This document shows, piece by piece, positions 10,444-30,093 of a DNA stretch of 64,000 bases. Source of the stretch: Escherichia coli (GTDB taxonomy: Bacteria; Pseudomonadota; Gammaproteobacteria; Enterobacterales; Enterobacteriaceae); NCBI RefSeq assembly GCF_024502345.1, contig NZ_JALDNN010000001.1; one strand, 5' to 3'. The notes below the pieces were generated by a model, which worked only from the letters and a program-made list of their open reading frames with translations, was not told the origin of the DNA and did no database searches. How positions within the stretch are numbered: the stretch's first letter is position 1; every line of letters starts with the position of its first letter. A program made the translations under genes and the position numbers.

Positions 10444-10595
10444 GGTATTTTTCTCCCTCTGAGGATATGGCTATCGGGAGACGTCCGGTGGTGGTTGAAT
10501 CATGGGGTTACCGGTTCTCCTCAGAGGATAGGGGAACGTTGTAAAAAATTACCCGGCCCGCACAATCAGGCCTGATGAATCGAGATATGTCTGGC

Positions 10596-11201: not shown

Positions 11202-11336
11202 TACCGGTGCTGTTAAAAAAAACTTATTGCCTTCAGCGAGTCCGCCAGTCGATCCCTCAGAGACGGCTGGCTTCAGTAAAATATCGTGGCTGGCAGAATG
11301 ATTGCGTAAAGGGTAATCGCCTCTCAGAAATCGGTT

Positions 11337-11857
11337 CTAATGCCGGGTGACCCGAAGGCTGCGAAAAAACAGTCTTCCCGTTAGACGATGGCGGGTACGC
11401 TTGACATAAGCGGCGTCAACGAGTTCATCGGGTGGCAAATCACGGGTGATATTACAAATCGTCGCCAGTGCTGTATCGGAGAGTTTAAAACTCCGTGACA
11501 AGGCGTAGTAATCCCCGGTTTTTTGGTTACTGATGTTATCGAATAACGCTCTGAAGAAATCCGTCTGTGAAGGTCTGCGGGCGTTGATAATTGCCTCTGT
11601 CGCTTCATCCCTGAATGTTACCTCCACCTCTTCCATCCCCAGTGAGCGAATGATCCCGGCAATGTCAGGCCAGTAGCGAAGATCGAAACTGTTAAGTCGC
11701 TGCAATTCTGGCTTACAGAAGCAGCTGAAGATTGCGATGCCCTTGTATTGACCTGGACCCAAAATAGGTTGTGGTTACCCTGAAAAGCAAATATTACCCC
11801 AGAGGGATGTATATACCCGGGGCAAGAGCCCCTGTACCAGTCCCTCATTGCTGTCAT
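11337..11857 (-). pseudogene. Hypothetical gene, probably frameshifted near 11760
   Basis: ORF 11618-11857 (MTAMRDWYRGSCPGYIHPSGVIFAFQGNHNLF..) runs into ORF 11337-11762 (..GPGQYKGIAIFSCFCKPELQRL...) in another frame with no gap. It could instead be a shorter intact gene starting at MEEVEVTF (11636). Confidence 0.35.
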
Positions 11858-14280: not shown

Positions 14281-14629
14281 GGGCTTTGCGCTAAAAACAA
14301 GGTGAGCGGAGGCAGTAATACAGACCAGAAATGACATTCAAAATAATTTCAGACCTATATTACCGGTGTGAGAACGGCAGCAGAAGTGCTGCCGTTTTGT
14401 TATTTCACTCACGGAGGTTAATGTGTCCAGTAAGAACAAACGGGGTCCCGATACCCTGTTACCGTCGTTATTCCTTCTCCCGGGTCAACTGTCCCACAAA
14501 ATACCCGTGCGTATGCTTCTCGCGCTAAGTCACAGCTATGCTTTCTGTTCCGGTACCCAGGTCTCTCTGATACACGGTCCGCCAGCTCATGAAGGCGGCT
14601 ATTTATTGCCAGTAATAAGGGAGAAAGAA

Positions 14630-14926
14630 ATGCATTGTCCGAATTGCGGTTCGCAAAACATACGACTGCGCCATGTGGGTAAAAAGACGGGTGGGGTCAT
14701 TGGCGCAACAGCCGGAGGCATTGCCGGGCTTGAAGGAGCCTCCACCGGTGCGCTGATAGGTTCAGTCATTCCGGTTGTCGGTACGATAGCCGGAGGCCTC
14801 ATTGGTTTTCTGTCCGGCGCCTGTGCTGGTGCGGTGGCAGGCTCTCTGGCCGGAGAACAACTGGACGGTACCGTCTTTGATGAATACGGCTGCACGCAGT
14901 GCGAGCATATCTTCAGTGCACCGTAA
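14630..14926 (+). CDS. Small zinc-ribbon plus glycine-zipper protein (98 aa)
   Basis: ATG at 14630 follows GGGAGAAAG. Reads MHCPNCGS...; the GxxxG-rich segment is GGVIGATAGGIAGLEGASTGALIGSVIPVVGTIAGGLIGFLSGACAGAVAGSLAG, and the C-terminal motif is GCTQCEH. Confidence 0.6.
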   Translation: MHCPNCGSQNIRLRHVGKKTGGVIGATAGGIAGLEGASTGALIGSVIPVVGTIAGGLIGFLSGACAGAVAGSLAGEQLDGTVFDEYGCTQCEHIFSAP

Positions 14927-15187
14927 CGTTAATAAGGGTCAGCCCATCCTGCACAAAGCCTGAGCCGCTGACCGTACTCGCTACGGCACGACTGATGACA
15001 GGGCGTGTCAGCATGCTGTCGTCATTTCAGCTACCTGGCACTAACCCTTTGTTAATTCTCCTGTTTACTGAAAGATGAATTTTACTTTTTCTTTTCCGCC
15101 ATTACGGGGGATGGACATAACGTGTCCCTCCCCGCCCGCATAATAACCGCATGAAATATCAACCTATTTATCGCACACGGAGCGTCC

Positions 15188-15916
15188 ATGCAACGACCCG
15201 ATGAAGAGGCCCGCTACGACCGGCTGGCCGTCAGATTGTCGGTCATTATCAGCCGGTTAATGGCCGGAGAAACGCTGACCCTTCAGACACTGTCCGGTGA
15301 GTTTGGTGTATCGATACGCACCCTGCGTCGTGACTTACATCAACGGCTGGTCCACCTCGACATTATCGGGGAGAACGGCACGTATCGGCTCAGTGAGAGC
15401 GCCACGCGTGATCACTCTCCGGGGGCCGTTTCCTTTGCCCGCAGTACCGGTATCGCACGCATTATCCCGTCGCAGAACCGGCAACTGATGCACCTGCTGA
15501 TGAATGAAACGGGCACCTCACCCTGCTTTATCTGGCACGACTTACCGCCAGCATGGACACAGGCTGACAGTTTTCATCGTCTGGCCGAAGCCATTTGTCA
15601 TCACCGGGTGGTCAGTCTGCTGGTCGGCGGTGTCCGTCACGATGAGCAGGAGCCTTACCGCCTGATTTACCGGCATCAGCACTGGTATCTGGTCGTCTGT
15701 TGCCGGGGGAGCCTTCGGGTGTTCCGGCTGGAAGACATTATCTCGGCCTCACTCTCAGAGCAAACCTTCCGTCGCCGGAGCGAAATCAGTTCGCTCATTA
15801 CTGAAGAGGGATTTATCAGCGCACTGCCCCACTTTCGCTTTATCAGTGATGTCATTCACACCTTCAGGGAACAACACCCTGAACATCCATCCAGACCCAA
15901 AGGAGTCAAATCGTGA
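15188..15916 (+). CDS. WYL-domain transcriptional regulator (HTH plus WYL)
   Basis: Has the N-terminal HTH LTLQTLSGEFGVSIRTLRRDL and the central EPYRLIYRHQHWYLVVC motif. Its stop overlaps the next gene's start. Confidence 0.75.
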   Translation: MQRPDEEARYDRLAVRLSVIISRLMAGETLTLQTLSGEFGVSIRTLRRDLHQRLVHLDIIGENGTYRLSESATRDHSPGAVSFARSTGIARIIPSQNRQLMHLLMNETGTSPCFIWHDLPPAWTQADSFHRLAEAICHHRVVSLLVGGVRHDEQEPYRLIYRHQHWYLVVCCRGSLRVFRLEDIISASLSEQTFRRRSEISSLITEEGFISALPHFRFISDVIHTFREQHPEHPSRPKGVKS

Positions 15917-16179
15917 AACCTGTCGAAGGCCCTCTGCTGCTCTTCACCCTGATGTTGTCTGCCGTAACCCTGAGCGGCTGTGGCGACAAAAATGAACGCG
16001 AGTTTATCCGGGGATGCAAATCAGGCGGCGGTACTACCGCCGTCTGCGGATGTATCCGGGATGACCTCAAAACGAAATATACGCACGGGGAGCTGGAGAA
16101 AATGAACCAGCAATACGGTTATGTCCCCCCGCGCTTCATGGACAACATGCTGAGCGCTGCTCAGCAGTGCAGAAAATAA
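15913..16179 (+). CDS. Small lipoprotein
   Basis: Signal peptide with lipobox LLLFTLMLSAVTLSGC. The GTG start overlaps the regulator's stop (GTGA). Confidence 0.65.
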   Translation: MKPVEGPLLLFTLMLSAVTLSGCGDKNEREFIRGCKSGGGTTAVCGCIRDDLKTKYTHGELEKMNQQYGYVPPRFMDNMLSAAQQCRK

Positions 16180-16191
16180 GGAAATCTGAAC

Positions 16192-16503
16192 ATGGCGCTT
16201 GTCATTAAATATTTCGCGATTGCCTTCGCCATCGCGCTTGTGGTCGTGCTGTTTAACGTGTTCGGGAGTACCGGCGAGATACGCAGTTTTGGTCAGGGAA
16301 TGGAATATCTGTTCTGGATGACGCTTGGGCCCGGAGCCGGTATGACGGTCGGTGCTGCTCTTCGACAATGGCTGATGCCGGATGCGGTATACACCCGCGA
16401 AGGAATGACCGGATTACTCAAGGCCCGTCTGTTCTGGCTTGTGGGCCCACAGTATATCGGCTGGCTGGCCGGACTTATCGTCGTGGGTAAACAACTCATG
16501 TAA
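16192..16503 (+). CDS. Small inner-membrane protein (3 predicted TM segments)
   Basis: Hydrophobic segments include IKYFAIAFAIALVVVLFNVF and LFWLVGPQYIGWLAGLIVVG. It lies 12 nt after the previous gene. Confidence 0.55.
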   Translation: MALVIKYFAIAFAIALVVVLFNVFGSTGEIRSFGQGMEYLFWMTLGPGAGMTVGAALRQWLMPDAVYTREGMTGLLKARLFWLVGPQYIGWLAGLIVVGKQLM

Positions 16504-16549
16504 CACGGCTGCCCCCCAACAACATTTTTGACTGAGAAGGAAAAATACC

Positions 16550-17020
16550 ATGCGATTCATGCACGCCATCCTGTCAGCAGGATTACTGACCTTTGCCATC
16601 ACGGCACAGGCGGTCCCCAATATGTGGAGCAGTGGCTTCGGTATGGGCGTCACCGAGTACATCATCACCAGCCCGGAAAACGTGATGATGAACCTGAACT
16701 GCACCGGCAACCCTGACGACCAGAATATCCTGCAGCATCACGTCATGCTCACCCTGCCTGACGGCAGCGGTGCCGATTCACAGGATGAGAAAACCGCCAT
16801 CACCGTCGTCACGGATGACCAGACGTTCCCCCTGCCGTCCTCTCTGGGCTGGCGTAACGGCGACAACGCCTGGCTGTCGTTCATTGATGCCATCAGAAAA
16901 GCAACGTCGTTTGAGATTTACGTCAACGACAAACAGGTGGGGCACTTTACCCCTTCGGCTGGAAACGTTCACAAGGTTCTGGCTGATATGCCCGAATGCA
17001 CGACACTGACCGCCGGGTAA
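16550..17020 (+). CDS. Secreted/periplasmic protein (YfjT-like position)
   Basis: Has the cleavable signal peptide MRFMHAILSAGLLTFAITAQA|VP and an RBS AAGGAAAAA upstream. Confidence 0.6.
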   Translation: MRFMHAILSAGLLTFAITAQAVPNMWSSGFGMGVTEYIITSPENVMMNLNCTGNPDDQNILQHHVMLTLPDGSGADSQDEKTAITVVTDDQTFPLPSSLGWRNGDNAWLSFIDAIRKATSFEIYVNDKQVGHFTPSAGNVHKVLADMPECTTLTAG

Positions 17021-17068
17021 CCCGGCGCATCCCCGGTTTACAGCAAAATCAATCAAGGACAATACGAT

Positions 17069-17581
17069 ATGACCGACATTTCGACACTCAGCCAGCGACT
17101 GACGACGCCAACCCTGCATTTTGTTCTACTCACCGTCGCCACCTGCGGCATCTGGCCGTTACTGTGGCTGTACCGAAAACAGCAGATTATCAGCGACACC
17201 ACCGGATATCCGGTTTGCGGCAATCTGTTTATCATCTGGCTCGCCGTCTGTTTTGGGCTCGGACGACAGTTCGGCGTGATGGCCTCACCGGACCTGGCGG
17301 GCTACTACACGGGCAGCGATACACTGTTGGCCTTAAGCGGCATTCTGTCGCTCACCTGCGGCGTGATGTACATCGTCTGGGCCTTTAAGGCCAGAGCAGC
17401 ACTGCGACACTATGCGCTGAACACCTTCCGGTTTGACCTGAAGATGAATGCGTTTTATACCGTGGTGCTCAACGTCTTCTACATTACATACTGCATCAAC
17501 GATATGCCGCAGGCACTGGCGAAGCACCGCATTATTCATGGTCAGGCCCCTGTGCCGCCGGAGTCTCCGTCACCGCAGTAA
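17069..17581 (+). CDS. DUF4234-like membrane protein
   Basis: Carries the LHFVLLTVATCGIWPLLWLYRK motif and further TM segments. Confidence 0.55.
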   Translation: MTDISTLSQRLTTPTLHFVLLTVATCGIWPLLWLYRKQQIISDTTGYPVCGNLFIIWLAVCFGLGRQFGVMASPDLAGYYTGSDTLLALSGILSLTCGVMYIVWAFKARAALRHYALNTFRFDLKMNAFYTVVLNVFYITYCINDMPQALAKHRIIHGQAPVPPESPSPQ

Positions 17582-17663
17582 CGCAGCTCTCCTCTTATTA
17601 TCCGGCCGGGGCATTCCTGTGTGCCCCAGATTCATCCGGATCCCCCCTCTGAGATTTGACCCA

Positions 17664-17885
17664 ATGACATTACTGAAAATCGTGCTCAACACCCTGCGTC
17701 AGGTGCTGACGTGGTGCGCCAGCAGCCGGGCGCAGCAGTTTGTGGAAGACCACTTCCGCGAAGAAGGCTATGACGAAGACAGTATTTACATCGCCAGACA
17801 GGCGGCAACCCTGCTCGCAGGTGCCTTAATCACAGCGCTCATGGAACAGATACTGCAGCTTATTGCCACACACTTAACCCACTGA
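17664..17885 (+). CDS. Small hypothetical protein (73 aa)
   Basis: Internal ATG of ORF 17448-17885 ([15 protein letters not shown]...). The upstream part of that ORF overlaps the preceding gene. Confidence 0.35.
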
Positions 17886-17940
17886 TGCCCTGCTCACTGA
17901 GCGGGGCATTTTGTTTTATGCCATTCATCAGGAACTGAAT

Positions 17941-18174
17941 ATGCAAGTCACTGACGATACGTCGTTACCGCCAGGGCAATTCACCCGCCGACAGGCTGAA
18001 GCCGTGGTCACGCTTTACCACAACGTCACTATAGAAGATGACCAGGGTACGCACTTTCGGCTGGTTATTCGCGACAGCGAGGGGACGTTAATCTGGCGGG
18101 CCTGGAATTTTGAAGCCAGTGCCGGGGAATGGCTTAACCGCTATCTGCTCAGCCACGGGATCCCCAAACACTGA
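17941..18174 (+). CDS. DUF905/UPF0401 (YkfF-like) small protein
   Basis: Carries [44 protein letters not shown] and is paralogous to 44225-44458. Confidence 0.7.
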
Positions 18175-18212
18175 CACACCACAGCTTAACCCAATAGCGA
18201 CCACACAAAAAA

Positions 18213-18246
18213 GCCATGCTCCCACAGGAGCATGGCTGTTTTGTTT
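18213..18246 (+). terminator. Rho-independent terminator
   Basis: GCCATGCTCC-caca-GGAGCATGGC followed by TGTTTTGTTT. Confidence 0.7.
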
Positions 18247-18277
18247 ATGCCGTTAAATCAACAATAAGGAATTTACC

Positions 18278-18535
18278 ATGAGACTAGCCAGCCGCTTTGG
18301 ACGGACAAACCAGATCCGTCGCGATCGTCCGTTAACCCGCGAAGAACTGATGCAGGTCGTTCCCAGCGTATTCAGTGCAGATCGCCACGGTTCCAGGAGC
18401 GAAAAATACGCTTACATACCCACCATTACTCTGCTCGAAAATCTTCAACGCGAAGGCTTTGAACCCTTCTTCGCCTGCCAGTCACGCGTACGCGACCCTG
18501 ACCGCCGGGAGCACACCAAACATCTGCTGCGCCAT
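18278..18535 (+). pseudogene. DUF932 (YafZ/YfjQ-family) gene, N-terminal ~85 codons only; truncated at the cassette junction
   Basis: MRLASRFGRTNQIRRDRPLTREELMQVVPSVF...EGFEPFFACQSRVRDPDRREHTKHLLR parallels the intact paralog 44557-45375 up to about codon 85, then diverges. Confidence 0.8.
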
Positions 18536-18675
18536 CTTTGTAGACCGGAGAATGATGTTTGGATGAAAGCGAGTTTTGGTACCCTCATCATTGAGGGTAC
18601 CAACAGCAAAATACTCGGCGAATGCTATTGTCTAAGCACAGCGCCAAGCCTTAGCGGCACGAATAGTTGTTAACC

Positions 18676-21414
18676 TTACTCAGCTTTAGCAAACTGCTGG
18701 GTGAAGTAAGCCAATGAATTAGCTTCTTTTACGGCATCATGCGGAATGAGTAAGTATTTCCAAGGTTTGCCACCGTGCTGTGCAAGGTATTCACTGGCAT
18801 GACTACACCATTTCACACCACTGCGGGCTTTTTCGGTGACTTCCTCATTCCAACTGCCGTCTTGGTTTTGATGTTGAGTACTTTTAGTTTCAATCATCAA
18901 TACATAGTCGGCGGTTTCAGCAACGAAATCCGGCACGTATTCAGGATGCTCGCTACCGCGTTTGTAGTACATCTTGAATTGGCCTTTGGCAGGCTTAAAC
19001 CACTTCTCGCAGTCGCGTTCTAAAATCACCGCAAAACGGCGCTCAGTGTCTGAATCAAACTTTTGCAATGGGTATAGACAACGGCTAAAGCCGCCAAAGA
19101 GCATTTGTTTGATGCGACTGACATCGCGTACTGTATCACGGTAGCTTTGCACCGGCTGGTCTTGCGCTATGGTGTAAGCGCAGTCACGTAAGGTACTAAA
19201 GCCACTGCGTACATCGACGACGTACTCGGTTGCTTCTTCAAAGAAGTGGTTGTTCAGTTGCGCATGAATTAACTTCGCAATCGCATCACTCTGGTTTTGC
19301 AGAATGTTCTCAACCACATCGTCGTCGTTTTCAGCGGCCAGTGTATTGACAGCTTGAGTGGCTAGGTCAAACAAAAGTTCAGCTTGCTCGTCGTAAGGAA
19401 TATCGTCGTAATCGAACAGCTTCTTCAAAATATAGTTTTGTTTCACCGGCTCGTAGTTGCCCGAATCGCCTTCGCCACGAATGGTTTGGTGATTGTCTTG
19501 CAGGCTTTGTTGAATCAGAGTTCGGTCGATAGGTTTTAAACCTTTAATGGCAGCAATGTCCAAATCGAACGGGTGATAGCCGGTACGTACTTCACCTGAT
19601 GGTGAAACAATAATACGCGGAATATCTATGGTGTTATCCACCGTGAGCTGGGTGACTTGCTCAACAATCGCCGCAATATCCACCGATTCTTCAGTAAATA
19701 GCTCCCGTTGCTCTTGGGTTAACTGAGCTTTTACTTGTTCGGTGATCTGTGCTTTTACCTCAGTCGTTAACAATGCTTTGCTGGTCGGCGCATCGGTAGG
19801 GCGTGTTTGATATTGCTTGATCACGTCCAATGCAGCGCGGGCAACGGTTTGTTGGTTAGGCGTGGTATAAGTGGCTTTAGGTTCTTGTACCTCACGGTTA
19901 CCGTCTGCACCGGTTGCGGTTACACCTGAACCAGTCAGTTGCTGCTCTAGGTTCGATTTAACCTGCACACTTTGTTTGGTTACATCGTCTTCTGGGCGAT
20001 CTAATACGCGTGTTTTCAGGCGCAGTGGGTTATTCGGGTCGTTAGCCTCATCAACAATTTCTTGGAATTTGTCGTGCGCAACAATGCTCAGCGTATCGAC
20101 GGCTTCAACACCTGTACGTTTGCCATAAGGTAAACGCAAACCACGGCCAATTGACTGTTCAATTAGGGTTCTGGCGTTGGCTGCACGTAGTGGCACAATG
20201 GTGTACAGGTTAGTAACGTCCCAACCTTCTTTCAGCATGTTAACGTGAATGACGATCTCGGTTGGCTCATCGACATGCTCAACATTGAGCAGTGCTTGAA
20301 TAGTTTCTTCTTCTTTTTTACTGCTATCCACTTGAATGACTTTGCCACGGTAGCGGCCGTCAAACACTGTTTCAAGTTTGGTTAAAAGCTCTGCTGCATG
20401 CGTGGTATCACGGGCAATCACCAACATAAAAGGCTTAACTAACTTAGCATCGTTTTCATGTGCATAAGTGATTAAATCCACCTTGGTTTGCTCATGTAAA
20501 CGAATACCGTCCATTAACTTAATGGTTTCTAGTTCGTCTTTATCATATTGGCTGGCATCAAAGTTACGCTGAGTAACAACGGCAGGCTCTTTAACAAAAC
20601 CATCATCCATGGCACAGGCCAATGGGTAATCAATCACCACATTTTTAAAGTGCACAGGGCCACGACTTGATTCGGTAAATGGTGTGGCCGTTAGCTCTAA
20701 TGCGAATAGTGGATTAAGCTCATTGAGCGCACGCATACCGGCATCGGCACGATAGCGATGCGATTCGTCCATCAGCAGCACTAAGTCAGGTAAGTTCGAT
20801 AGATACTCAAAGTAGCTTTCGCCTAGGGTTTCCGCTAAACGCTTAATACGCGGGGCTTTGCCTCCACGTACTTCGGTGTTAATTTTCGCGATGTTAAACA
20901 CATTGATCCGAACCGAACCAAATAGATCGCCCATGACTTGTGCGCCGCGGCTCTCATAGTTATCACCGGTGATCACTTCTGGCGGTGCTAGCACAAAATC
21001 GGTAATGCCTTTAAACACGTACTTCGGTGAGGCGGGCGAGAAATCGCTGATCAGCTTTTCATAAATAGTCAGGTTAGGTGCCAACACAAAATAATTGCGA
21101 ATGCCATGTACCTGATACAAATAGGTAATAAACGCCCCCATCAAACGGGTTTTACCTACACCTGTTGCCAAGGCAAAACACAGTGAAGGAAAGTCACGTT
21201 CAAAATCGCTGAGCTTAGGAAACTGCGCTTTTAAGGTTTCTAATAGCTCCGGCACATCGCGTTTTGGGTTCAGTAGTTTGTGCTCAGAAGCACTAATCGC
21301 CACTGCCAACGCACGCAGCGAATCTTGCTGCGGCTGGCGTAAGCTTAAACGGCCAATAATATTATTAATGGCACGTAATTGGTCGGGTTTTAAGCTTGAT
21401 AAATCCATGGTCAT
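18676..21414 (-). CDS. res: Type III restriction enzyme Res subunit (SF2 helicase plus C-terminal PD-(D/E)xK nuclease)
   Basis: 912 aa with ATGVGKT (motif I), LLMDESHRY (DExH), helicase-C VNMLKEGWDVTNL..QSIGRGLR, and C-terminal PDFVAE...LMIETK. It lies 21 nt downstream of mod. Confidence 0.85.
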   Translation of the reverse strand: MTMDLSSLKPDQLRAINNIIGRLSLRQPQQDSLRALAVAISASEHKLLNPKRDVPELLETLKAQFPKLSDFERDFPSLCFALATGVGKTRLMGAFITYLYQVHGIRNYFVLAPNLTIYEKLISDFSPASPKYVFKGITDFVLAPPEVITGDNYESRGAQVMGDLFGSVRINVFNIAKINTEVRGGKAPRIKRLAETLGESYFEYLSNLPDLVLLMDESHRYRADAGMRALNELNPLFALELTATPFTESSRGPVHFKNVVIDYPLACAMDDGFVKEPAVVTQRNFDASQYDKDELETIKLMDGIRLHEQTKVDLITYAHENDAKLVKPFMLVIARDTTHAAELLTKLETVFDGRYRGKVIQVDSSKKEEETIQALLNVEHVDEPTEIVIHVNMLKEGWDVTNLYTIVPLRAANARTLIEQSIGRGLRLPYGKRTGVEAVDTLSIVAHDKFQEIVDEANDPNNPLRLKTRVLDRPEDDVTKQSVQVKSNLEQQLTGSGVTATGADGNREVQEPKATYTTPNQQTVARAALDVIKQYQTRPTDAPTSKALLTTEVKAQITEQVKAQLTQEQRELFTEESVDIAAIVEQVTQLTVDNTIDIPRIIVSPSGEVRTGYHPFDLDIAAIKGLKPIDRTLIQQSLQDNHQTIRGEGDSGNYEPVKQNYILKKLFDYDDIPYDEQAELLFDLATQAVNTLAAENDDDVVENILQNQSDAIAKLIHAQLNNHFFEEATEYVVDVRSGFSTLRDCAYTIAQDQPVQSYRDTVRDVSRIKQMLFGGFSRCLYPLQKFDSDTERRFAVILERDCEKWFKPAKGQFKMYYKRGSEHPEYVPDFVAETADYVLMIETKSTQHQNQDGSWNEEVTEKARSGVKWCSHASEYLAQHGGKPWKYLLIPHDAVKEANSLAYFTQQFAKAE

Positions 21415-21435
21415 TATAATTATCCTTATTAACCG

Positions 21436-23142
21436 TTAATCTTGCGCTGCATCGTCATCGGCAGACGCATCGTCAGTTAGGTTTGCCACGTTTAACGAAT
21501 AATCGTCCTGACCAAATTGGCACTTGTCTAAAATGGCTTTTGGCAGTTTTTTCAAGGTTAAATTGGTAAAACGACCTGGCTCGCAGCGAAATGCACCACA
21601 CATAACCAGTAAAGTTCGGTCACTGCCAACTTCTTCTGACAGCGCTTCTAATTTATCTACCGATAAGCTTTGTGTGGTGACATAAATATGATCCGTCTCG
21701 GTTGAATAACCGTGATCCCACCAATTCACTTCCGATGGCGCATAGGTAAAACCTTCCAGCTTACAAACGGCTTCGGCGAGCATTTCTGGGTTGTACTCTT
21801 TATTGATCACTTCCAAGCCAAACTTATCTTTCACAATTAAGGTCGGGGCAAGTTTGTAATAGCGGAAGCCACCGCCACCTTGCCAGTTTACAGACTTAGA
21901 AATACCACCTTGATCTTCGCCATCAATCACTTTTTGCAAGCGCGGGATAATATGGGTATGACAATGATCACCTAGCTCGACCGAGATCCAACGTCTTTTC
22001 ATCTTGTGAGCTACAGCAGCAGTAGTTCCCGAACCACCGAATGAATCAAAGACTAAATCGCCTTCTCGCGTACACATTTCGAAAATCCGCTTCAAAAGCG
22101 CTTCGGGTTTTTTTCCATTTTTGAAACTAACGCCGCCTTCATTTGCTATTCCATTCCAACTAATGTCAGTCCAAACATCAGTTATTAGTTCAGCAGGTTG
22201 CATCTCACCGTCAATTTCCAAAAGCCTATTGGAGTAAAAGACCATTTGCCTACCATTTGCGATATAAAAGCCTTCGACATCCTCATTTGGATGTACATAA
22301 ACCTTATCCCTATCTTTCTTTGACTTCTCGATAGTTTCTTTTCTCTTTATTTTAGCACCACCACCAATTGCAACGGATTGAAATACACGTTCTGCATTAT
22401 CAATTGCGAATTGTGCTAATTCATCATCAAATGTATCAGGCAGTTTTTTCTTGGCTTCTTTTGTATCTTTATAGCCATTGGCCTTTGCAAACGCATCGGC
22501 AATACCGCACCACGTCCAACTTTTATAATGGTCATCTGGGTTTAATAGATATTTGTTATATCCCGTATCATATCCTTTAGGTATATAGATTTTGTTAAGC
22601 GGTTTCTGGGTGCGATCTTTTGCGTATACAAGCAAAAAGTTTACTGTGGAGAAAACTGTGGCCCCTGTTGCCTTAAAGCCTGAAGGGTCATTTGTGGTCA
22701 TCGATATGGTATTTAACTGATTTGCACGACCAAAAATCTCGTCCATCAAAACTTTTAAATAAGCCATTTCGCAGTCATCTAAGTGAACGAATATTACTCC
22801 ATCATCACTTAGTAGATTACGAATTATTTCTAACCTATCCCTCATTAAGCCCAGCCAAATGGAATGCTCCAGACCATCATCATAGTGCTCAAAAGCACTT
22901 CCGGTATTGAATGGTGGGTCTATGTAAACACACTTCACTTTGCCTGCATATTCTTGCTCTAGCGCCTTCAATGCCAATAAGTTATCGCCAAAAATCAGTT
23001 TATTATCAAAAATATCGTTTTCGGTCACTTTTTGGCTGGCGTGATAAGACTTGCTCGGGTCTTCTAACAAAATGCGCGGCTCTAACTTTTTGCGCTCGTT
23101 TTTGCCTATCCAGGTCAGTTCTAATTTGGTTTTGCTCATCAT
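21436..23142 (-). CDS. mod: Type III R-M Mod subunit (beta-class N6-adenine/N4-cytosine DNA methyltransferase)
   Basis: 568 aa with VYIDPPFNTG (motif IV) preceding FDSFGGSGTTAAVA (motif I). The N-terminal LTWIGKNERKKLEPRILLED is typical of Type III Mod. Confidence 0.85.
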   Translation of the reverse strand: MMSKTKLELTWIGKNERKKLEPRILLEDPSKSYHASQKVTENDIFDNKLIFGDNLLALKALEQEYAGKVKCVYIDPPFNTGSAFEHYDDGLEHSIWLGLMRDRLEIIRNLLSDDGVIFVHLDDCEMAYLKVLMDEIFGRANQLNTISMTTNDPSGFKATGATVFSTVNFLLVYAKDRTQKPLNKIYIPKGYDTGYNKYLLNPDDHYKSWTWCGIADAFAKANGYKDTKEAKKKLPDTFDDELAQFAIDNAERVFQSVAIGGGAKIKRKETIEKSKKDRDKVYVHPNEDVEGFYIANGRQMVFYSNRLLEIDGEMQPAELITDVWTDISWNGIANEGGVSFKNGKKPEALLKRIFEMCTREGDLVFDSFGGSGTTAAVAHKMKRRWISVELGDHCHTHIIPRLQKVIDGEDQGGISKSVNWQGGGGFRYYKLAPTLIVKDKFGLEVINKEYNPEMLAEAVCKLEGFTYAPSEVNWWDHGYSTETDHIYVTTQSLSVDKLEALSEEVGSDRTLLVMCGAFRCEPGRFTNLTLKKLPKAILDKCQFGQDDYSLNVANLTDDASADDDAAQD

Positions 23143-23196
23143 TTCTGTGCTCTTATCTTGTGTTCGTTACTTAGCGTTATTATTCTACAGCAATCG

Positions 23197-25062
23197 CTAC
23201 GCAGGTTGTGCTTGGCGATTACTCGCTTGGGTGTTTTGCCCTTGTCGGCGTTGCGCTTGCTCGGCTAAGTAACTGAATAAATTCTGGTTGTGTGGGTCGT
23301 TCGCTTGAAGGCGTTCTTGTTTTGCTACAACTGCCGGGCTTTCTGCCAAGTTTAAATGGCTAATCCACACCGTTTGCATTAAACGTGCGGTATCGCCCAA
23401 GCGTTTGAAGTATGCGTGCGGCGCACTGCCTAATACTAATGCCGTAAAACTATCAAAAAATTGCTGACGAAGTTCATCAAAAGCGTGGCTGATTAATCTT
23501 TTAAATGCCGCTTGCTCGGTAATCTCAGGAGCCGTAATAGCGCCTTCAAACTGCGCCATTAATAGCGTGGTTATGCAGTAAGTAAAATGTCGATATACCA
23601 GTTTTTCTGGGCTTGGACTACTGCGCTCTGCGTTTGTACATAAGACTTGAATAGCCAGATAGCAGTTCACCGCGTTAATGGCGACGGCCCCCTGTAAATC
23701 TGTACTAAAAACGGCTTGGTACTCGGCACTTTCTTGGTTAGTGAATTTGCTTGGCTCTACTTTTAGCTGATAAGGCACGCGTACATCACCGTGCATACAG
23801 GCCAATGCTTTGGCCAAGGTGTCGATAGTAATGCTGCGAATACCCGCTGCTGCGCTTTGTTGTGGGCGGTAGAGATATTCAACACCAAACATTTTCATCT
23901 CTTGGCGCAAGCGTTCTTGGGTATCATCCAGCGCGGCAAAGTTGGCTAAATCGACCGGGTTTTGCAGGTTACGCGCTTTGGTTACTTGTTTGTGAAATGC
24001 ATCGTTACCCGTGTTGATAATGGTTACCATCACTTGAGCTTGGCTGATGTCTGCATTTGGGTTTTCACGCATAAACTGTGCAGCACTAGCAATGGTTTGT
24101 GCACCGTTAACGACGGACAGGCCATCGACTGCAACATGCTTGCTACCTGTGTGGCCTCTAATATTCCCTTTTGGTTTTACTGCATTGCCAACCAGAGTAA
24201 TGCCATTGTTAAGATAAATAAAATTTTCCGGCTCATGTAAAAGGGTGTCTTTAATCGCCCTATTTACCCCACGTCTGCCAGCACCAATAAAATAGCGAAT
24301 ATTTTTCTCGTAAAGTTTACGGTCATGAGTAGTGTGCAAGGCAATTAAATCGGTTAGCTTGGCGATACCAAATACGACTTTTCGTGGTTGTTCTTGCACT
24401 CGGAACTTATATACAGCGACACGCTCGTTTACCGTATCAACCGCATGTTCACTGCGAAGAGCCTGCTCAACATCGGTGGCGGTGTATTCTTGATATTCAG
24501 GTGCGATTTGCTCTTCACCTTCATCAATCAGCTCTTGGATCGCTGGTTGTAGGTAGTTTTGTGCTTGTATGGTAATGCCATTACCTGTGTATGCGACAAG
24601 CAGTTGAATTCTTTCGCACTCGTCTAATGCGGCTTCAATATTTGCTTGAAGGTTTTGAACATTTTGATTAAAGCGGTGAAATTGCTTGTTTAAAAGTAAC
24701 TTTACACCCTCAATAAAAGCCTGTGCTTCGCCCAATTGGAATTGCGCATCTTCCTTCATTTTTGACTGTACTAAGTACAGAGTCTGATCAGCTTCGTGAT
24801 AATAAATTGCATCAATACCATGGTCTTCATAGTCGTCCACCACAGCTTTTGCTGCGGTCACTACGTCTAAATCGAATTTTTGCTGTAGTACGAATGCGCT
24901 AAAAGCCCTGGAAATTTGCTTTTTAGGTTTATCTTCTCGCCCACCTTGCCCAAGCAATGGCGGTAAATGCGGCACAAAACGCTGCTGTAGCAGTTCTTTT
25001 AATAGGGTAAGAAATTGTGGTTGTAATGCTGCCAAGTGAGTTGTCCTTATTTTTATTGCCAA
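23197..25062 (-). CDS. AIPR-family (abortive infection phage resistance) protein
   Basis: 621 aa with [31 protein letters not shown]...[11 protein letters not shown], the AIPR signature as I recall it. The first codon is TTG (25062-25060), which overlaps the Abi_2 stop by 10 nt. Confidence 0.7.
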
Positions 25063-25982
25063 ATTGGCCGCGCTTGCCAGTCGGCTGGAAAGCCCATGCG
25101 GTCAATGTCTATTTGGTGATGATTTATCAATTGGATGAGTCGTTGCTTCCAGTGATGTTCACCACTGATCACATCCATGAGGTAGCCCAACATCACCAAG
25201 GTGTTATAAATTTTTCGTAAACGCCGGTCGCTATCGGGCAGGTTTTGCAAGCTTTGAATCAGTGCCGGTTCACCATGGCGTGGCAGTACCGTGGTTTTAA
25301 TAAAATCACGGTTCCATAGCCTAGAATGATGGGCACTTAAATTGCGCACTAGCGACAAATGCTCACAGAATGAGGTAAGAGTTTTTTCATCTAGGCCGTA
25401 GCTTTTGCTTATTACCTGGCGGTCGGCACGCAGCTTGATATTGCTGTACCAACAGGAAAGTTGCCCCATGGTTAACAGCTCAACACAGGCCCAAATAGGG
25501 GGTAGTGGCTCTTGATATTTTTGCGTAAGGTGCTTGATGAACTCTTCACGACTGCACTTTACCTCACCCGTGAGTTTGCCAAGGCTACTGGCGTATTCTA
25601 ATAAATCACCAAAGAGCTCTGGTTTTAAATGAGGGTGCGCGGTTTGGTATTTTTGGCTCAACTGATACGCAATTTGTGTGCGTAATGACACCTCAAAACG
25701 CTCGATGGCATCTAGCACTAACAAACGTAGTTCACGGTCGAAAACATATAGGCTTAGGACTTGGTCAAACTGAGTACCTGTGATAAACGTATGACTGGCA
25801 TGATCTTGCTCATAGGGCAAACAATAAGCCGCAAAACGATAGTAGTTCAGCTGTGCTAAGTAAAACTCAGCTTTCGGGACATCACTGATCACTAGGCCAC
25901 GTTGTTGCAACAAGCGTACTTGATCGCTAAAGCTTGTAGGGGGCTTGGTAAAAGCGACTTTAGGGACTGGTTTGCGGCTCAT
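25053..25982 (-). CDS. Abi_2-family (AbiD/AbiF-like) HEPN protein
   Basis: Carries [12 protein letters not shown]...YYRFAAY...VFDRELR...[16 protein letters not shown] (HEPN R-x4-H). The start is taken at MSRKP (25982); the longest ORF starts at 25994. Confidence 0.75.
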
Positions 25983-26139
25983 TTGACCTCCCATGCAACA
26001 GAAGATCGAATTTTGCGGGCCCCAGAAACGAGTAACCCCTCACAGGGCGCTGATCTGACGGGTAGCGGGAGGGGTGTTGTTGCAGTGATCATAGCCCCAA
26101 ACTGAAAAAAGTCAATGCTGGCGTTGAAATTGATTGTCA

Positions 26140-29034
26140 TCATTGAACCGTCCACCCAATGGTAAATAGGGTCTCTTGGCTGGTTTTTTTATTCAGTTTG
26201 CCTTCTAAGCTTTCAATCAGCTGTTCGCGCTTTTCGTCCACTTCATCTTGTTTATCAAACAGTTCACGGCGGCTTTTATTGCGCTGACTTTCTAACTGGC
26301 GCTGCTGTTTTTGCAGGGCAAGTTTCTCTTCCAGGGTTGGAGCTATTTTGGCTTCGCGGCGTACTTGCTTGATTTGCTTATCAAGCTCTTTTATAGATTG
26401 TTCAAGCCCTTCTTTTAAATCGTCTGCCCAAGAATCTAACTTGTTTACCTCTTGCTCGAAGAAGCTGAGATTACGATCGTTAACTTGCTTTTCGATGCCT
26501 AGTCTCGACTGCTGTAACGCATGCTGCAGCGCATATTGATAGCCAGGATATAAGGCGGCAAGTTCTTGCTCACTTACTTCACTTTGCACACAGGCACTAA
26601 GCTGCATCAGCTTTTGCACGACTTCACTTGGTAGCGGATGACCATGTTCATCTTGCGCGGCGAACAATAAATGGTCTTCGCTACGCTCCAATGATTCGAC
26701 ACTAAATTTTTGTAGGCTTAGTACACCTGACAAACCCACTAAGGGTTCTAGCATACTGATTTTTGTTTGGTGGTTGCTGTAATCAAAAATTACGCTGGCA
26801 ATGGGTAATTCACGTTGAAGCGCGTTGCTGATCACCCATTCACCCAGCGGGTGGGTGATACGATACACATGGGCATTGGCTAGTTTACCGGTTTCAATAC
26901 TGCCGCTTTGCTGTCCTCGGCGTACAAGTTGGTAGCTACCTGTAGGAGCCTGATTGATACTTTGATTAAGCGTAAAACTATGGTTGCTTGGGTCAATGTC
27001 TGCGATAGCTGCAAGTTCATGCGTACTGAGTTGCCAGAACCAACGGCCTACTTTATCGAGGCGTTGCTGCGCGGCATCTAGCTGAATTTTGAGTAAGTCG
27101 TGAATATCTTCATCGAAATTTTCCAGCAGCAGTTGCTGGGTCTCGCGCATTTTTTGGTTGATGTCGGCTTCTAGCTCTTTTTGCAATTGATCAAAAGCTG
27201 CTTCTATTTCCGCCGGTTGCCGACAAGTCTCGTATATATTTTGGATGCGTTTTTCAAAATCAATACCAGATTCAATGCTGCCTAGCACATCGTCCGATGC
27301 ACCAAACACGCCATCGAACAGATGGAATTTTTCAGTCAGTAACTCTAAAACACGCTGATCGGCTTTGTTGGCTTCGTTGAGGAAGTTGATCACCACAACA
27401 TCAAATTGCTGCCCATAGCGGTGACAACGGCCAATACGTTGCTCTACTCGTTGTGGGTTCCATGGTAAGTCATAGTTAATAAGTAACGAACAGAACTGTA
27501 AGTTAACCCCTTCTGCAGCCGCTTCGGTTGCGATCATAACTTCGGCATGATGGCGGAAGTAATCAATTAGGGCAGTACGGCGGTCAATTTGCGGTGAACC
27601 ACTCACCTTATCACTACCTTGGTTTTCAGCTAACCACTGCTGATAAACTTTGGTTGCTTCTGGATGGTTATTGCTGCCACTAAAGGTGACTAATTTATCA
27701 GCAAAGCCATTCGCCTCGAGGAAACGAGCTAGGTATTCTTGCGTGCGCTTCGATTCGGTAAAAATAATGACTTTACGTGGCGCCCCCATTTCCTCCATTT
27801 TGGCAAACCCTTGATTAAGCGCCGTTAGCAAGGCTTGGGTTTTACTGTCGGTGGTAATGGATTTAGCCTGCTCGATATAATGCTCAAGCTCGGCTATTTC
27901 AGCATTGAGTAACTCAAAGTCAATATCACTCTCAGGGGTATTGCTTTGTGTTTCTTCTACATACTCGCTGTACTCTTCTCCTAAATCATCACTCTCAACA
28001 AGCTCACTGATAATATCGAGGTCCGATTTAGCCTGTACTTTCAAGTCAACCAATCGGCGCTTTATAGTTTCGAGTGTGTTGAGCACTGCGTGCGAACTAG
28101 ATGCTAATAGCTTTCTCAGTATAAGGCCGGTTAAATGACGTTGGCTCTTGGGTAGTGCATAGCTCTCGTCCTTTTCCAATAAGGCACTAATACTTTCGTA
28201 AAGTGCCATCTCAGCATTAGAGGGTGTAAACGGTACGGTGAGTGTTTGACGTTGGGTATAGCGGACGTATTCGAGTACATCTTTGCGCAAGGTACGCTGA
28301 ATAAACCCGGTAAGTCGTTTCTTTAAATGCCCTAGCGCACTTTCGTTATTGACAAAGTGTTGTTTGAAGCTTCGCTCATCGCCGAAGATTTGATCGTCGA
28401 TAATGGTTGAAAGTCCATACAATTCCATGAGCGAGTTTTGTAAGGGTGTTGCAGTAAGTAATAGCTTTTTACTGCCATCTAATGCGCGGCGTAGCGTTTG
28501 ACCCATTTTATTGCTGCTACGATGTGCATTACGTAGCTTGTGCGCTTCGTCGATGACGACAATATCCCATGGCTCTAGCATTAGCTGCGTTTCCATTCTC
28601 GCAGCATAGTGATAGGACATAATAGAAACGCAGTGATTAGCTAGCGGGTTAGTTTGACCATTGTTAACACTAATGCGCCACGTTTTTGCATCAAGCACTT
28701 GCGTTGGTAAATTAAACTTATCGCCCAATTCCTGCGCCCACTGGCGTCGCAATGACGCCGGGCAGATGATCAATATGCGGCGTTTACGCTCTGCCCAATA
28801 CTGTGACAGTACTAAGCCTGCTTCAATAGTTTTCCCTAAGCCCACTTCATCAGCGAGTACAACACCTTTGCTTAACGGGTTGTTGAGCGCAAAAAGTGCC
28901 GCATGAATTTGGTGCGGATTGAGATCAACACTGGCATCAAAAAGAGATTGAGACAATTTATCAACGCCATTTTCAGCGTGGCGAATGGTTAATTCCTGCG
29001 CAAAGTATTTTGCTTGATAATCAGTTATTACCAT
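26140..29034 (-). CDS. SNF2-family helicase with a ~330-aa uncharacterised C-terminal region ending in a coiled coil
   Basis: Carries LADEVGLGKTIEAG, VVIDEAHKLRN, LLLTATPLQNS and INYDLPWNPQRVEQRIGRCHRYGQ. The preferred start MVITDYQAKYFAQELT at 29034 follows AAGGGG and overlaps the HTH gene's stop by 14 nt; the longest ORF starts at 29115. Confidence 0.8.
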   Translation of the reverse strand: MVITDYQAKYFAQELTIRHAENGVDKLSQSLFDASVDLNPHQIHAALFALNNPLSKGVVLADEVGLGKTIEAGLVLSQYWAERKRRILIICPASLRRQWAQELGDKFNLPTQVLDAKTWRISVNNGQTNPLANHCVSIMSYHYAARMETQLMLEPWDIVVIDEAHKLRNAHRSSNKMGQTLRRALDGSKKLLLTATPLQNSLMELYGLSTIIDDQIFGDERSFKQHFVNNESALGHLKKRLTGFIQRTLRKDVLEYVRYTQRQTLTVPFTPSNAEMALYESISALLEKDESYALPKSQRHLTGLILRKLLASSSHAVLNTLETIKRRLVDLKVQAKSDLDIISELVESDDLGEEYSEYVEETQSNTPESDIDFELLNAEIAELEHYIEQAKSITTDSKTQALLTALNQGFAKMEEMGAPRKVIIFTESKRTQEYLARFLEANGFADKLVTFSGSNNHPEATKVYQQWLAENQGSDKVSGSPQIDRRTALIDYFRHHAEVMIATEAAAEGVNLQFCSLLINYDLPWNPQRVEQRIGRCHRYGQQFDVVVINFLNEANKADQRVLELLTEKFHLFDGVFGASDDVLGSIESGIDFEKRIQNIYETCRQPAEIEAAFDQLQKELEADINQKMRETQQLLLENFDEDIHDLLKIQLDAAQQRLDKVGRWFWQLSTHELAAIADIDPSNHSFTLNQSINQAPTGSYQLVRRGQQSGSIETGKLANAHVYRITHPLGEWVISNALQRELPIASVIFDYSNHQTKISMLEPLVGLSGVLSLQKFSVESLERSEDHLLFAAQDEHGHPLPSEVVQKLMQLSACVQSEVSEQELAALYPGYQYALQHALQQSRLGIEKQVNDRNLSFFEQEVNKLDSWADDLKEGLEQSIKELDKQIKQVRREAKIAPTLEEKLALQKQQRQLESQRNKSRRELFDKQDEVDEKREQLIESLEGKLNKKTSQETLFTIGWTVQ

Positions 29035-29227
29035 CCAACACCCCTTTTCCTTGAGCTGCTTGCGTACTGATCCATTCTTCAAGATCGGATTGTTTAAAGC
29101 GCCAAGCATTGCCAACTTTAAAAGCAGGAATTTTATGTACCGCTGCTAGACGGTAAACAGTTCTCTCATTTACCTTCAAATACTCAGCTACTTCTTTAAT
29201 TGTCAGAACGGTATCAGTCATTTTCAC
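29021..29227 (-). CDS. Excisionase/MerR-type HTH DNA-binding protein (68 aa)
   Basis: LTIKEVAEYLKVNERTVYRLAAVHKIPAFKVGNAWRFKQSDLEEWI is an HTH_17/Xis-like pattern. It is the first gene of the minus-strand cassette. Confidence 0.75.
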   Translation of the reverse strand: MKMTDTVLTIKEVAEYLKVNERTVYRLAAVHKIPAFKVGNAWRFKQSDLEEWISTQAAQGKGVLDGNN

Positions 29228-29433
29228 TCGGCCACTTTGAAAAGTGCGTCAATTATCTAATGCGAGTGTCAAAATAGTACAAATAAGTACATGAATCAAT
29301 CTTATTCGGCACTTGCCGGAGCTCCTTGGCTTTAATCCTCATCAATTTTAGGTACAGTTTTCAGGCTCGGGGATAAAGTATAAAGAATGTCGTACTGCCG
29401 CTGCCAGAGCAATATTCCCCCCTGCTGGTTGTA

Positions 29434-30093
29434 TCAGAGATGGTATGCCGGTATTTTGCGGGTTGTTCCCGTCAGGTTATCGTGCACCTCCACGGTCGTC
29501 GTTACCACCGGCATTCCGGCCTTTCTCAGCCTCAGGACATCAGCCGCAATACGCTGACTGCCAAACCAGAACAGGCCGTCCAGTGCAGTCACCAGTAAAC
29601 CTGCCTCCAGCGCATACTTCAGCCGTTCACGGGGCGCTTTCACTTCCCTGGCAACCTGCTGATATGGCGATGATGTGCTTTCATTCCCAACCACGCGACG
29701 AATACGGTGAGACAGATGATACCGGTATATATCCGGCACACCAGAAAGACTGGCCTTCAGGCTGTACACGCAGCCAAACCGTTTATCGTTGAACACCACA
29801 TTTTTCTGGCTGATGCCCCATTCTTCACGCAGCGCGGCAATCAGTTGTGGTGTCCGGGTAAGCAGCAAGCGAAAAGGCAGCTCAAAACTGGTGACGTAAT
29901 CCACATTCAACAATGCAATACGCAGTCGTTCTTCTGGCCCGGCCTCTGTCTGCCGACACTCCTCCAGAACATCCTGCCACTGCCGGCGAAGACGGGGCGA
30001 TTCGTTCCGTTCTGTAAAACAGTATTTATCTGCCAGATAATCAATTCGTGTACGCATACTGAAAAGAATTCCGTATAAAGATTCAGCAGACAA
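29434..30093 (-). CDS. Hypothetical protein (219 aa), last gene of the module-B head operon
   Basis: Long ORF co-oriented with and 52 nt downstream of a YfjJ-like gene. It occupies the same position as 7767-8372 in module A. Confidence 0.45.
   Translation of the reverse strand: MSAESLYGILFSMRTRIDYLADKYCFTERNESPRLRRQWQDVLEECRQTEAGPEERLRIALLNVDYVTSFELPFRLLLTRTPQLIAALREEWGISQKNVVFNDKRFGCVYSLKASLSGVPDIYRYHLSHRIRRVVGNESTSSPYQQVAREVKAPRERLKYALEAGLLVTALDGLFWFGSQRIAADVLRLRKAGMPVVTTTVEVHDNLTGTTRKIPAYHL

Follow-up and report, generated by a model that had tools for sequence, protein, structure and literature searches.

The DNA analyzed here is a stretch of 64,000 nucleotides (nt) of Escherichia coli contig NZ_JALDNN010000001.1 (assembly GCF_024502345.1), hereafter the window. 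Its subject is a cassette of six genes that encode, in the order of transcription, a small helix-turn-helix (HTH) protein, an SNF2-family ATPase, an Abi_2 protein of the HEPN type, an AIPR-family protein, and the Mod and Res subunits of a Type III restriction-modification (R-M) system. An earlier note on this DNA took the six genes for one composite anti-phage system. Comparison with related loci suggests that only a part of this string belongs together: the core is likely to consist of SNF2, Type III Mod and Res, with the HTH protein as an optional addition, whereas the SNF2-Mod and Mod-Res intervals appear to be slots for exchangeable cargo in which Abi_2 and AIPR are passengers.

The coordinates of the open reading frames (ORFs) and the Pfam, PADLOC and NCBIfam assignments agree that the six genes are intact, lie on the minus strand in one orientation and belong to the families that the earlier note had named (Table 1). 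The characteristic motifs are intact in SNF2 (GLGKT65, DEAH162, QRIGRCHRYGQ532), in Res (GVGKT85, DESH216, TAT242, QSIGRGLR420, D838...E851-T-K853), in Mod, where DPPF75 lies ahead of FGGSG368 in the order of the beta class, and in Abi_2, with RNLSAH at residue 225 as the R-x4-H motif of HEPN proteins. The HTH protein scores 81.9 bits with the NCBIfam model antiphage_MADS1, just above the cut-off of 80. The HTH and SNF2 genes overlap by 14 nt; a gap of 157 nt separates SNF2 from the preferred start of Abi_2, an ATG at 25982 with a GGGAGG ribosome-binding site in front of it (145 nt to the longest ORF); AIPR and Mod are 54 nt apart, and Mod and Res 21 nt. The junction lengths first reported stand, with the reservation that the 10-nt overlap of Abi_2 and AIPR requires a TTG start at 25062. 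The start of AIPR is uncertain, and the position equivalent to the RefSeq start in identical copies, 25035, leaves a gap of 17 nt instead. The central part of Mod (approximately 22064-22799) is variable and finds no DNA match in relatives that are 90-98% identical elsewhere, which fits a swapped target-recognition region. The G+C content of the cassette is 44.8% vs 49.6% in the remaining window (51.8% in the left 10 kb and 47.0% in the right 10 kb), so that the contrast noticed earlier exists but is smaller than hand counts had implied.

Table 1. Cassette genes, regulatory elements and boundaries, with positions in the window
Feature	Position	Strand	Evidence and remarks
Res, 912 amino acids (aa)	18676-21414	minus	SF2 (superfamily 2) ATPase with C-terminal PD-(D/E)xK nuclease; Pfam ResIII 2e-20; PADLOC REase_III 9e-191
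Mod, 568 aa	21436-23142	minus	beta-class N6-adenine methyltransferase; Pfam N6_N4_Mtase 3e-40; PADLOC MTase_III 7e-285, full length
AIPR-family protein (AbiU-like)	23197-25062 (longest ORF)	minus	Pfam AIPR 1e-38, profile positions 1-304 of 308; PADLOC AbiU 1e-37
Abi_2/AbiD-family HEPN protein	25053-25982/25994	minus	Pfam Abi_2 2e-51, profile positions 2-184 of 184; PADLOC AbiD 3e-71
SNF2-family ATPase, 964 aa	26140-29034	minus	Pfam SNF2-rel_dom and Helicase_C; PADLOC DrmD 2e-208
HTH_17 (excisionase/MAD1-like) small DNA-binding protein	29021-29227	minus	Pfam HTH_17 2e-19; PADLOC mad1 3e-10
Non-coding region upstream of the operon, with right block boundary	29228-29376	minus	
Promoter-like site TTGACT-16-TATGAT	26088-26115	minus	in the SNF2-Abi_2 gap; top score in 18300-29700, where the total of such sites is not above chance
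Leader element, about 60 nt, CAACAAC-ACCCCTCCCGCT...AGCGC...GAGGGGTTACTCGTTTCTGG	26020-26082	minus	near-invariant; matches the window exactly once and shuffles not at all
Foreign block, 10.85 kb	18524-29376	minus	blastn; 99.9% identical to tRNA-Sec island cargo of E. coli CFSAN004176
DUF932 5' fragment, codons 1-85	18278-18532	plus	Pfam DUF932, profile positions 2-52 of 227
Left recombination junction, CTGCTGC microhomology	18524-18532		junction alignment of the window with five other contexts; left side is island DNA unique to the window

The SNF2 family is very large and well conserved: the search returned at least 8000 matches, the best 120 of which are 61-97% identical to the window protein and 860-1000 aa long. 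Contigs representing one genome per species contained 587 SNF2 relatives. In the best 80 loci, the ORFs were called and compared with the six proteins of the window and also with the Mod/Res pairs of two other loci. Synteny was counted in the 61 loci with at least 7 kb of DNA downstream of the SNF2 gene. In 55 of these, Type III Mod and then Type III Res follow SNF2 without a change of strand, and 4 others show the arrangement in part; 2 of the 61 apparently lack Mod and Res, and one of these two carries the permuted order Mod-Res-SNF2. The same permuted order occurs in one locus outside the 61, with too little downstream DNA to be counted (L023). The loci with the core come from Gamma-, Beta- and Deltaproteobacteria, Bacillota, Gemmatimonadota and Nitrospirota, and in many of them the genes overlap or are separated by only 12-60 nt. 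A separate search that started from Res yielded the arrangements HTH_26-SNF2-AIPR-Mod-Res in Klebsiella pneumoniae (L133/L134, 3324-12709) and HTH_26-SNF2-ATPase-AIPR-Mod-Res in Thiodiazotropha (L136, 544-12724). The collection lists the K. pneumoniae Res in 291 blocks, so that this version appears to be common there, and in Thiodiazotropha the operon is directly followed by a Wadjet JetABCD operon.

Three non-orthologous Mod/Res families, defined by the PADLOC MTase_III/REase_III models, take part in this arrangement: family A, to which the window belongs (Mod of about 570 aa and Res of about 910 aa; models 03636/03648), family B (about 1040-1100 aa and about 1125 aa; models 03646/03654) and family C (about 650 aa and about 930 aa; models 03634/03647). 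The SNF2 proteins of the family A operons all fall into one cluster, whereas those linked to family C (L027, L031, L035, L066) are scattered among those of the family B loci, with one such pair being 94% identical. The presence of non-orthologous Mod and Res next to near-identical SNF2 proteins shows that Mod/Res modules have been swapped behind a constant SNF2. The outcome that the earlier note considered fatal to its idea, namely, that only mod and res travel together, is not what is seen, given that SNF2 accompanies them in so many loci and with all three families.

These comparisons also bear on the simplest alternative, that HTH-SNF2, Abi_2, AIPR and the Type III R-M pair are four unrelated systems that merely share a defense island. 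In line with this view, PADLOC and NCBIfam name the parts separately, Mod/Res pairs of different families stand next to near-identical SNF2 proteins, an AIPR-Mod-Res operon without SNF2 exists, and there are single-gene defenses that consist of an SNF2 protein with a nuclease, such as HmaA (PMC11232893). Shuffling within islands, however, would not preserve the order SNF2-Mod-Res in 55 of the 61 loci, across many phyla and three families, and an SNF2 protein without a nuclease domain is not likely to act as an effector by itself. Mere co-localization therefore appears unlikely as the full account of the locus.

The genes between the core genes behave in a different manner. When a gap of more than 250 nt is counted as an occupied slot, the slot between SNF2 and Mod is occupied in 22 loci and that between Mod and Res in 26. 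The ORFs in the former are nearly all co-oriented with the operon, and those in the latter include some on the opposite strand. More than 10 cargo families are represented overall, among them SoFic (7 loci), HEC-01A and HEC-01B (8 and 5 loci), HEC-03A/B, a HEC-04-like ATPase, an Old-like ATPase, a PD-Lambda-2_B-like protein, PDC-S05, PDC-S02, AAA_15/21 ATPases and small toxin-antitoxin-like genes; AIPR fills a slot in 4 loci and AbiD in 2, and some slots are empty. Within family A, the SNF2-Mod slot contains AIPR alone in Vibrio, Marinobacter, Shewanella and Klebsiella, Abi_2 alone in Methylophaga and E. coli CUPF09, both genes in the window and Nitrincola, and other genes elsewhere. In locus L124 (7971-9776), residues 4-49 of Mod are encoded a second time, as a short N-terminal duplicate upstream of the leader and Abi_2, and the full Mod gene comes after these two; the duplicate has the appearance of a scar that cargo left on inserting at the start of mod. 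The Abi_2/AIPR pair, which had been proposed as a fixed part of the system, is thus not fixed: homologous slots hold either gene, both, unrelated defense genes or nothing.

Variation of the same kind is found within E. coli, in which the cargo can be dispensed with. The block is present in 30 of 5426 complete E. coli genomes, in every case on the chromosome, and the full six-gene set is present at more than 99% identity in 18 of these as well as in several gut and food metagenome contigs, which answers in the affirmative the question whether the six genes co-occur elsewhere. Five genomes (2014C-3011 and four more, mostly of cattle origin) share a 1.2-kb deletion inside AIPR (window positions 23841-25015), and four lack AIPR and carry a 66%-identical Abi_2 allele and an IS1 insertion, so that AIPR is deleted or absent in 9 of the 30 copies. 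Strain CUPF09 combines an IS1 insertion, a different, split Abi_2 allele, absence of AIPR and a different Mod center, and in one genome (MB46) mod-res has been lost between two IS1 copies. Both CUPF09 and Methylophaga have an Abi_2 allele with 66-70% identity in place of that of the window. Genes nested inside a modification system, with content that varies among homologous hosts, are the mark by which embedding is recognized, and they are found here even within a single species.

Judging from blastn comparisons, the window copy is a mosaic, put together by recombination, when compared with Methylophaga and Shewanella. With Methylophaga it shares 95% DNA identity in the SNF2-HTH segment (97% for the proteins), and the Res gene and the ends of the Mod gene are 88-90% identical to both Methylophaga and Shewanella. 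The AIPR gene is 87% DNA-identical to that of Shewanella and the whole AIPR-Mod-Res segment 87-88%, while the Shewanella SNF2 reaches only about 70%; the mosaic breakpoints recur at 26181 and near 23140. In the marine methylotroph Methylophaga sulfidovorans (9678-18600), both ends of the block coincide with those of window segment 18524-29356. The 95% identity of the SNF2-HTH segment and the shared ends suggest a recent transfer between distant Gammaproteobacteria. Related copies reside in integrase-bearing islands of Vibrio, Marinobacter and Klebsiella, and the whole block would travel as cargo of such islands, its slots being filled and exchanged by recombination between related operons.

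The variability of the slots speaks against the integrated composite proposed at first, in which R-M would be the first line of defense, HEPN and AIPR a wired-in backup and SNF2/HTH a sensor or regulator. The six genes are indeed co-oriented and tightly spaced, the complete set is nearly identical in 18 complete E. coli genomes and in metagenome contigs, and Nitrincola and two marine contigs share the order SNF2-Abi_2-AIPR-Mod-Res, without HTH, with proteins that are about 60-75% identical; moreover, PrrC/EcoprrI is a precedent for a HEPN protein physically coupled to an R-M enzyme (summarized in PMC3710099). Yet, slot content differs among close relatives, AIPR is missing or damaged in 9 of the 30 E. 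coli copies, the HTH gene is missing from most loci, and Abi_2 has its own promoter-like site and a leader that also occurs at loci without a detectable Abi_2, most of which lack the SNF2-Mod-Res triad as well. A wired six-protein machine thus seems quite improbable. What survives of the composite is that SNF2, here with HTH, belongs with mod-res; Abi_2 and AIPR are better regarded as exchangeable passengers.

The promoter-like site and the leader upstream of Abi_2 (Table 1) set this gene apart from the rest of the operon. In relatives, the -10 box lies at an equal distance from the leader, which is near-invariant although the Abi_2 proteins of these relatives are only 56-70% identical. A 20-mer from the leader is present in 42 metagenome contigs and in 0 viral contigs, and 38 distinct copies align with an unchanging core. 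Besides the window, loci L003, L010, L012, L059 and L091-L132 carry the element. Approximately 26 copies precede Abi_2 genes, and one lies directly upstream of a Mod gene. Twelve copies without an Abi_2 gene end other defense or toxin-antitoxin cargo, namely, DarT, a Fic-family protein, an MqsA-like antitoxin and an unannotated 1046-aa protein, and adjoin a convergent gene of 226-234 aa, a homolog of the hypothetical gene that lies next to Res in the native island. A 58-aa ORF (25979-26155) covers the leader and relatives have ORFs in the same place, but conservation of the protein is poor while the nucleotides are near-invariant, and accordingly we read the element as non-coding.

The leader can form a possible hairpin, ACCCCUCCCGCU...AGCG...GAGGGGU, the 5' arm of which (CCCCUCC) resembles an anti-Shine-Dalgarno sequence. 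There is no covariation in this hairpin among the 38 copies because its arms do not vary, and the single leader sequence folds no better than its shuffles (z = +0.99). In three lineages, longer hairpins with compensating changes stand in for the apical loop, and a divergent copy in Kushneria contains one compensatory change from U-A to C-G. No Rfam family, the abiF motif included, matches 25960-26150 at E-values up to 10, and the only match in the scan of 18000-30000 is Thr_leader (E = 0.28), which was taken as chance. This match (25.6 bits) falls at 18153-18245, just upstream of the truncated DUF932 gene, in what is probably a terminator, a G+C-rich hairpin followed by a T run. In Clostridioides difficile, AbiF is neutralized by an upstream RNA, RCd22 (bioRxiv 10.1101/2025.04.15.648962). 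By analogy, the leader could be an RNA antitoxin or a translational control element, and it offers a testable case for RNA control of a HEPN toxin in E. coli.

At the other end of the operon, 14 of 82 related loci, about one in six, have an HTH_17 ORF that overlaps the start of SNF2. A few loci have HTH_26 or another small DNA-binding protein instead, and most have none, which makes the HTH gene an optional add-on; the SNF2/HTH pair of the initial description holds only for this minority of loci. Where HTH_26 (Cro/C1-type) replaces HTH_17, its gene overlaps SNF2 by 14 nt in Klebsiella pneumoniae and lies 45 nt away in Thiodiazotropha. Most simply, the HTH protein would be a transcription regulator of the operon.

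The SNF2 protein itself has an architecture of the RapA/DrmD/BrxHII type. Its closest solved sequence relative is RapA (2e-40), and its nearest profile matches are to the defense helicases DrmD, BrxHII and DpdE. The AlphaFold2 (AF2) model has a mean pLDDT (the score of the predicted local distance difference test) of 65.6 overall and of 80-90 in the C-terminal 300 residues, where strands within 746-819 are followed by helices at 832-897 and 901-946 and a final strand at 951-963. Compared by description, this modeled arrangement matches the published C-terminal domain of RapA and BrxHII, in which a pair of long helices interrupts a five-stranded sheet ahead of its last strand (PMC12839542, section 27). 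Neither Pfam nor the AF2 model revealed a nuclease domain in SNF2.

The cassette occupies a discrete, foreign, defense-related block, as initially supposed. On the right, homology ends at 29356 in Methylophaga and at 29376 in the E. coli selC island. In CFSAN004176, the corresponding island of approximately 16 kb consists of tRNA-Sec, a tyrosine integrase, IS600, an ArdA remnant, a 176-aa hypothetical gene, the genes from Res to HTH, and setC. On the left, in the E. coli selC island, TUM1881, CUPF09 and Methylophaga sulfidovorans, homology runs on beyond 18524 into this hypothetical gene of about 176 aa; among the contexts compared, only the window switches to DUF932 sequence at 18524. The DUF932 fragment is 79% identical over residues 1-85 to the intact paralog at 44557-45375, and the alignment ends at residue 85, in agreement with the claim that the cassette truncates this gene at about codon 85; its reading frame continues into cassette DNA up to 18673. 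The hypothetical gene (L090, 18426-18956), which has no Pfam match, is the convergent flank of Res in all native contexts, and is otherwise lost from the window, where only its last 47 or so codons (18533-18673) remain as an in-frame fusion to the DUF932 fragment. Its homologs edge other defense-cargo sites (L101-type loci, with a 233-aa ORF), so that it may be a marker of island hotspots.

Because block homology elsewhere extends past 18524 and the microhomology junction is present only in the window, the cassette did not integrate by itself, which supports the view of the earlier note that it arrived by recombination. A self-mobile unit with terminal repeats was considered and rejected: the block ends in recombination scars, of which the left one is found in the window alone, and the native block extends into a further gene. 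A piece of island cargo was joined to the CP4-like island by illegitimate recombination, with loss of the 3' part of the DUF932 gene. No integrase adjoins the cassette in the window, as had been noticed, and the window contains no tRNA gene, but the same block in CFSAN004176 is cargo of a tyrosine-integrase island. The 5426 complete E. coli genomes contain no instance of the DUF932-cassette junction and no closely similar DUF932 allele, and the empty-site allele with an intact DUF932 gene that the earlier note proposed to look for was not found among them either; the source of the window may lie outside this set. What the window contains, then, is a known kind of defense cargo, assembled by recombination, in a degraded CP4-like island.

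It is most improbable that SNF2 serves the mobile element (in replication, transfer or counter-silencing) with the R-M genes as the addiction module of that element: every copy of the cassette lies in an island that bears an integrase or AlpA and the HTH protein belongs to the excisionase/AlpA-like HTH_17 family, but SNF2 keeps company with Mod-Res rather than with the integrase, on backbones that differ (tRNA-Sec, a site adjacent to smpB, CP4-like), and its closest profile matches are the defense helicases named above.

The variation of slot content, combined with the stability of the core order, points to SNF2, Mod and Res as the core and to Abi_2 and AIPR as embedded cargo. In such a system, Mod would methylate self DNA and Mod-Res would cut unmethylated incoming DNA, with the ATP-driven action of SNF2 on DNA possibly assisting or extending this restriction, by analogy to ArmA and DrmD, and with the HTH protein, where present, controlling transcription of the operon. 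Abi_2, as a HEPN RNase, and AIPR would be separate abortive-infection modules that might serve as a backup when R-M is overcome, Abi_2 being an independent passenger with its own promoter and conserved leader and AIPR a second passenger.

Several observations weigh against this interpretation of the core and its cargo. Classical Type III enzymes act without an SNF2 partner. In Psychrobacter cryohalolentis (L135, 5718-15843), AIPR-Mod-Res occurs without SNF2, and together with the free swapping of Mod and Res this counts against a strict requirement for SNF2; in this genome, the operon sits inside a DUF2339 gene that is split into pieces of 84 aa and 1037 aa, and its Res is 89% identical to that of the window. 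The pairing of SNF2 proteins that are up to 94% identical with different Mod/Res families speaks against tight protein-protein co-evolution and fits a looser association. The 80 loci were chosen via SNF2, and the counts are accordingly blind to the share of all Type III systems that have an SNF2 partner. With the NCBIfam models for DrmD, SNF2 scores below the cut-offs (697 bits vs 950 for DISARM_DrmD_b, over the helicase core only, and 304 vs 610 for DISARM_DrmD). Finally, AIPR lies directly upstream of Mod in many family A operons, and so may accompany Mod more regularly than a cargo gene would.

A bolder version of the core-and-cargo model is possible but doubtful. Under this version, SNF2 would count as a genuine third subunit in a large class of Type III systems that has no name so far and that forms a bridge to DISARM, ARMADA and BREX type 3, the junctions flanking mod would be dedicated sites of cargo exchange, and the Abi_2 leader would be a new regulatory or antitoxin RNA that silences an embedded HEPN toxin. 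If hundreds of species pair Type III systems with SNF2, one methylase-plus-Snf2 module would underlie Type III R-M, class 1 DISARM, ARMADA and BREX type 3. The role of Snf2 in these systems would then be open to study in the simplest and best understood biochemical setting, and the two slots would be a further place to seek new defense genes.

Type III R-M systems consist of two subunits. Mod methylates adenine in an asymmetric site, so that self DNA is marked by hemimethylation, and Mod-Res cuts unmethylated DNA after ATP-dependent communication between two inversely oriented sites, both of which are needed. By motifs, by PADLOC E-values of 9e-191 to 7e-285 and by the position of res directly after mod, the pair in the window qualifies, at the sequence level, as Type III. 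It resembles the classical enzymes EcoP1I and EcoP15I in that mod precedes res on one strand, Mod is of the beta class and Res combines SF2 and PD-(D/E)xK domains. The window and hundreds of related loci differ from the classical systems by the conserved SNF2 gene upstream of mod and by the defense genes nested between the core genes.

Snf2 proteins of the RapA/DrmD/BrxHII type are known to adjoin an adenine methylase in class 1 DISARM (DrmD-DrmMI), BREX type 3 (BrxHII) and ARMADA (ArmA-ArmB). Like class 1 DISARM, the cassette combines a RapA-like SNF2, with its best match to DrmD models, and an adjoining adenine methyltransferase in a methylation-based self/non-self system that can hold embedded genes; unlike in DISARM, neither the cassette nor its flanks contain DrmA, DrmB (DUF1998) or DrmC (PLD), and Type III Mod provides the methylase and Type III Res the effector. 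In related loci, too, Type III Res stands where DISARM would have these three genes. Protection against phage Nami is nearly lost when drmD and drmMI of class 1 DISARM are deleted together (bioRxiv 10.1101/2021.12.28.474362). The combination of Snf2, a methyltransferase and a helicase-nuclease effector is also shared with ARMADA type II (ArmA Snf2, ArmB methylase, ArmC YprA helicase-nuclease, ArmD) and BREX type 3, in contrast to which the cassette lacks a YprA/DUF1998 helicase, a PglX-type methylase and BrxC/PglZ, the partners being a canonical Type III pair. Mutants of ArmA Snf2 in Walker A or B abolish ARMADA II defense (bioRxiv 10.1101/2025.09.15.676423; PMC13463889).

Membership in DISARM, MADS, Hma, ARMADA and BREX type 3 was rejected because the defining partner genes are absent. 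In the case of MADS, the HTH protein passes the MAD1 threshold, but no mad2-mad8 model is among the listed PADLOC matches of the other five proteins; in the case of Hma, the HmaA model (2e-56) is far behind DrmD (2e-208), and there is neither a NOV_C domain nor an HmaC-like ATPase. PADLOC, which had been suggested as a check on a single system, assigns the parts to separate known entities, that is, RM type III, AbiD, AbiU, an orphan DrmD-like helicase and mad1. No name or analysis of the SNF2-Type III triad was found in the literature, with coverage that was incomplete, making this a weak negative.

The passengers have counterparts of their own. Like AbiD/AbiF proteins that follow an upstream RNA, such as C. 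difficile AbiF with RCd22, the Abi_2 protein is full-length, has the R-x4-H motif and is preceded by a promoter and a conserved non-coding leader, but the leader differs by the lack of the abiF motif or of any Rfam family; the AIPR domain matches AbiU. Abi2 has been catalogued as embedded in R-M operons, and the PrrC-like backup model, with HEPN and R-M in layers, is the standard published hypothesis (PMC3710099). For PrrC/EcoprrI, cargo and host are functionally coupled, whereas the embedding seen in the present case is a matter of gene order. Embedding of defense genes has been described for Hma, BREX, DISARM and Type I R-M as guilt by embedding (bioRxiv 10.1101/2024.01.29.577857). The cassette and its relatives resemble these hosts in the co-orientation of the nested genes, the variation of the cargo and the cargo families themselves (HEC-01, HEC-03, HEC-04-like and PDC candidates), but the SNF2-Type III triad is not among the hosts analyzed in that study. 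Embedding and the layered logic of R-M and HEPN defense have already been described for other systems, and the cassette is a variant that joins a Type III R-M system to a Snf2 partner of the DISARM/ARMADA type and to embedded cargo.

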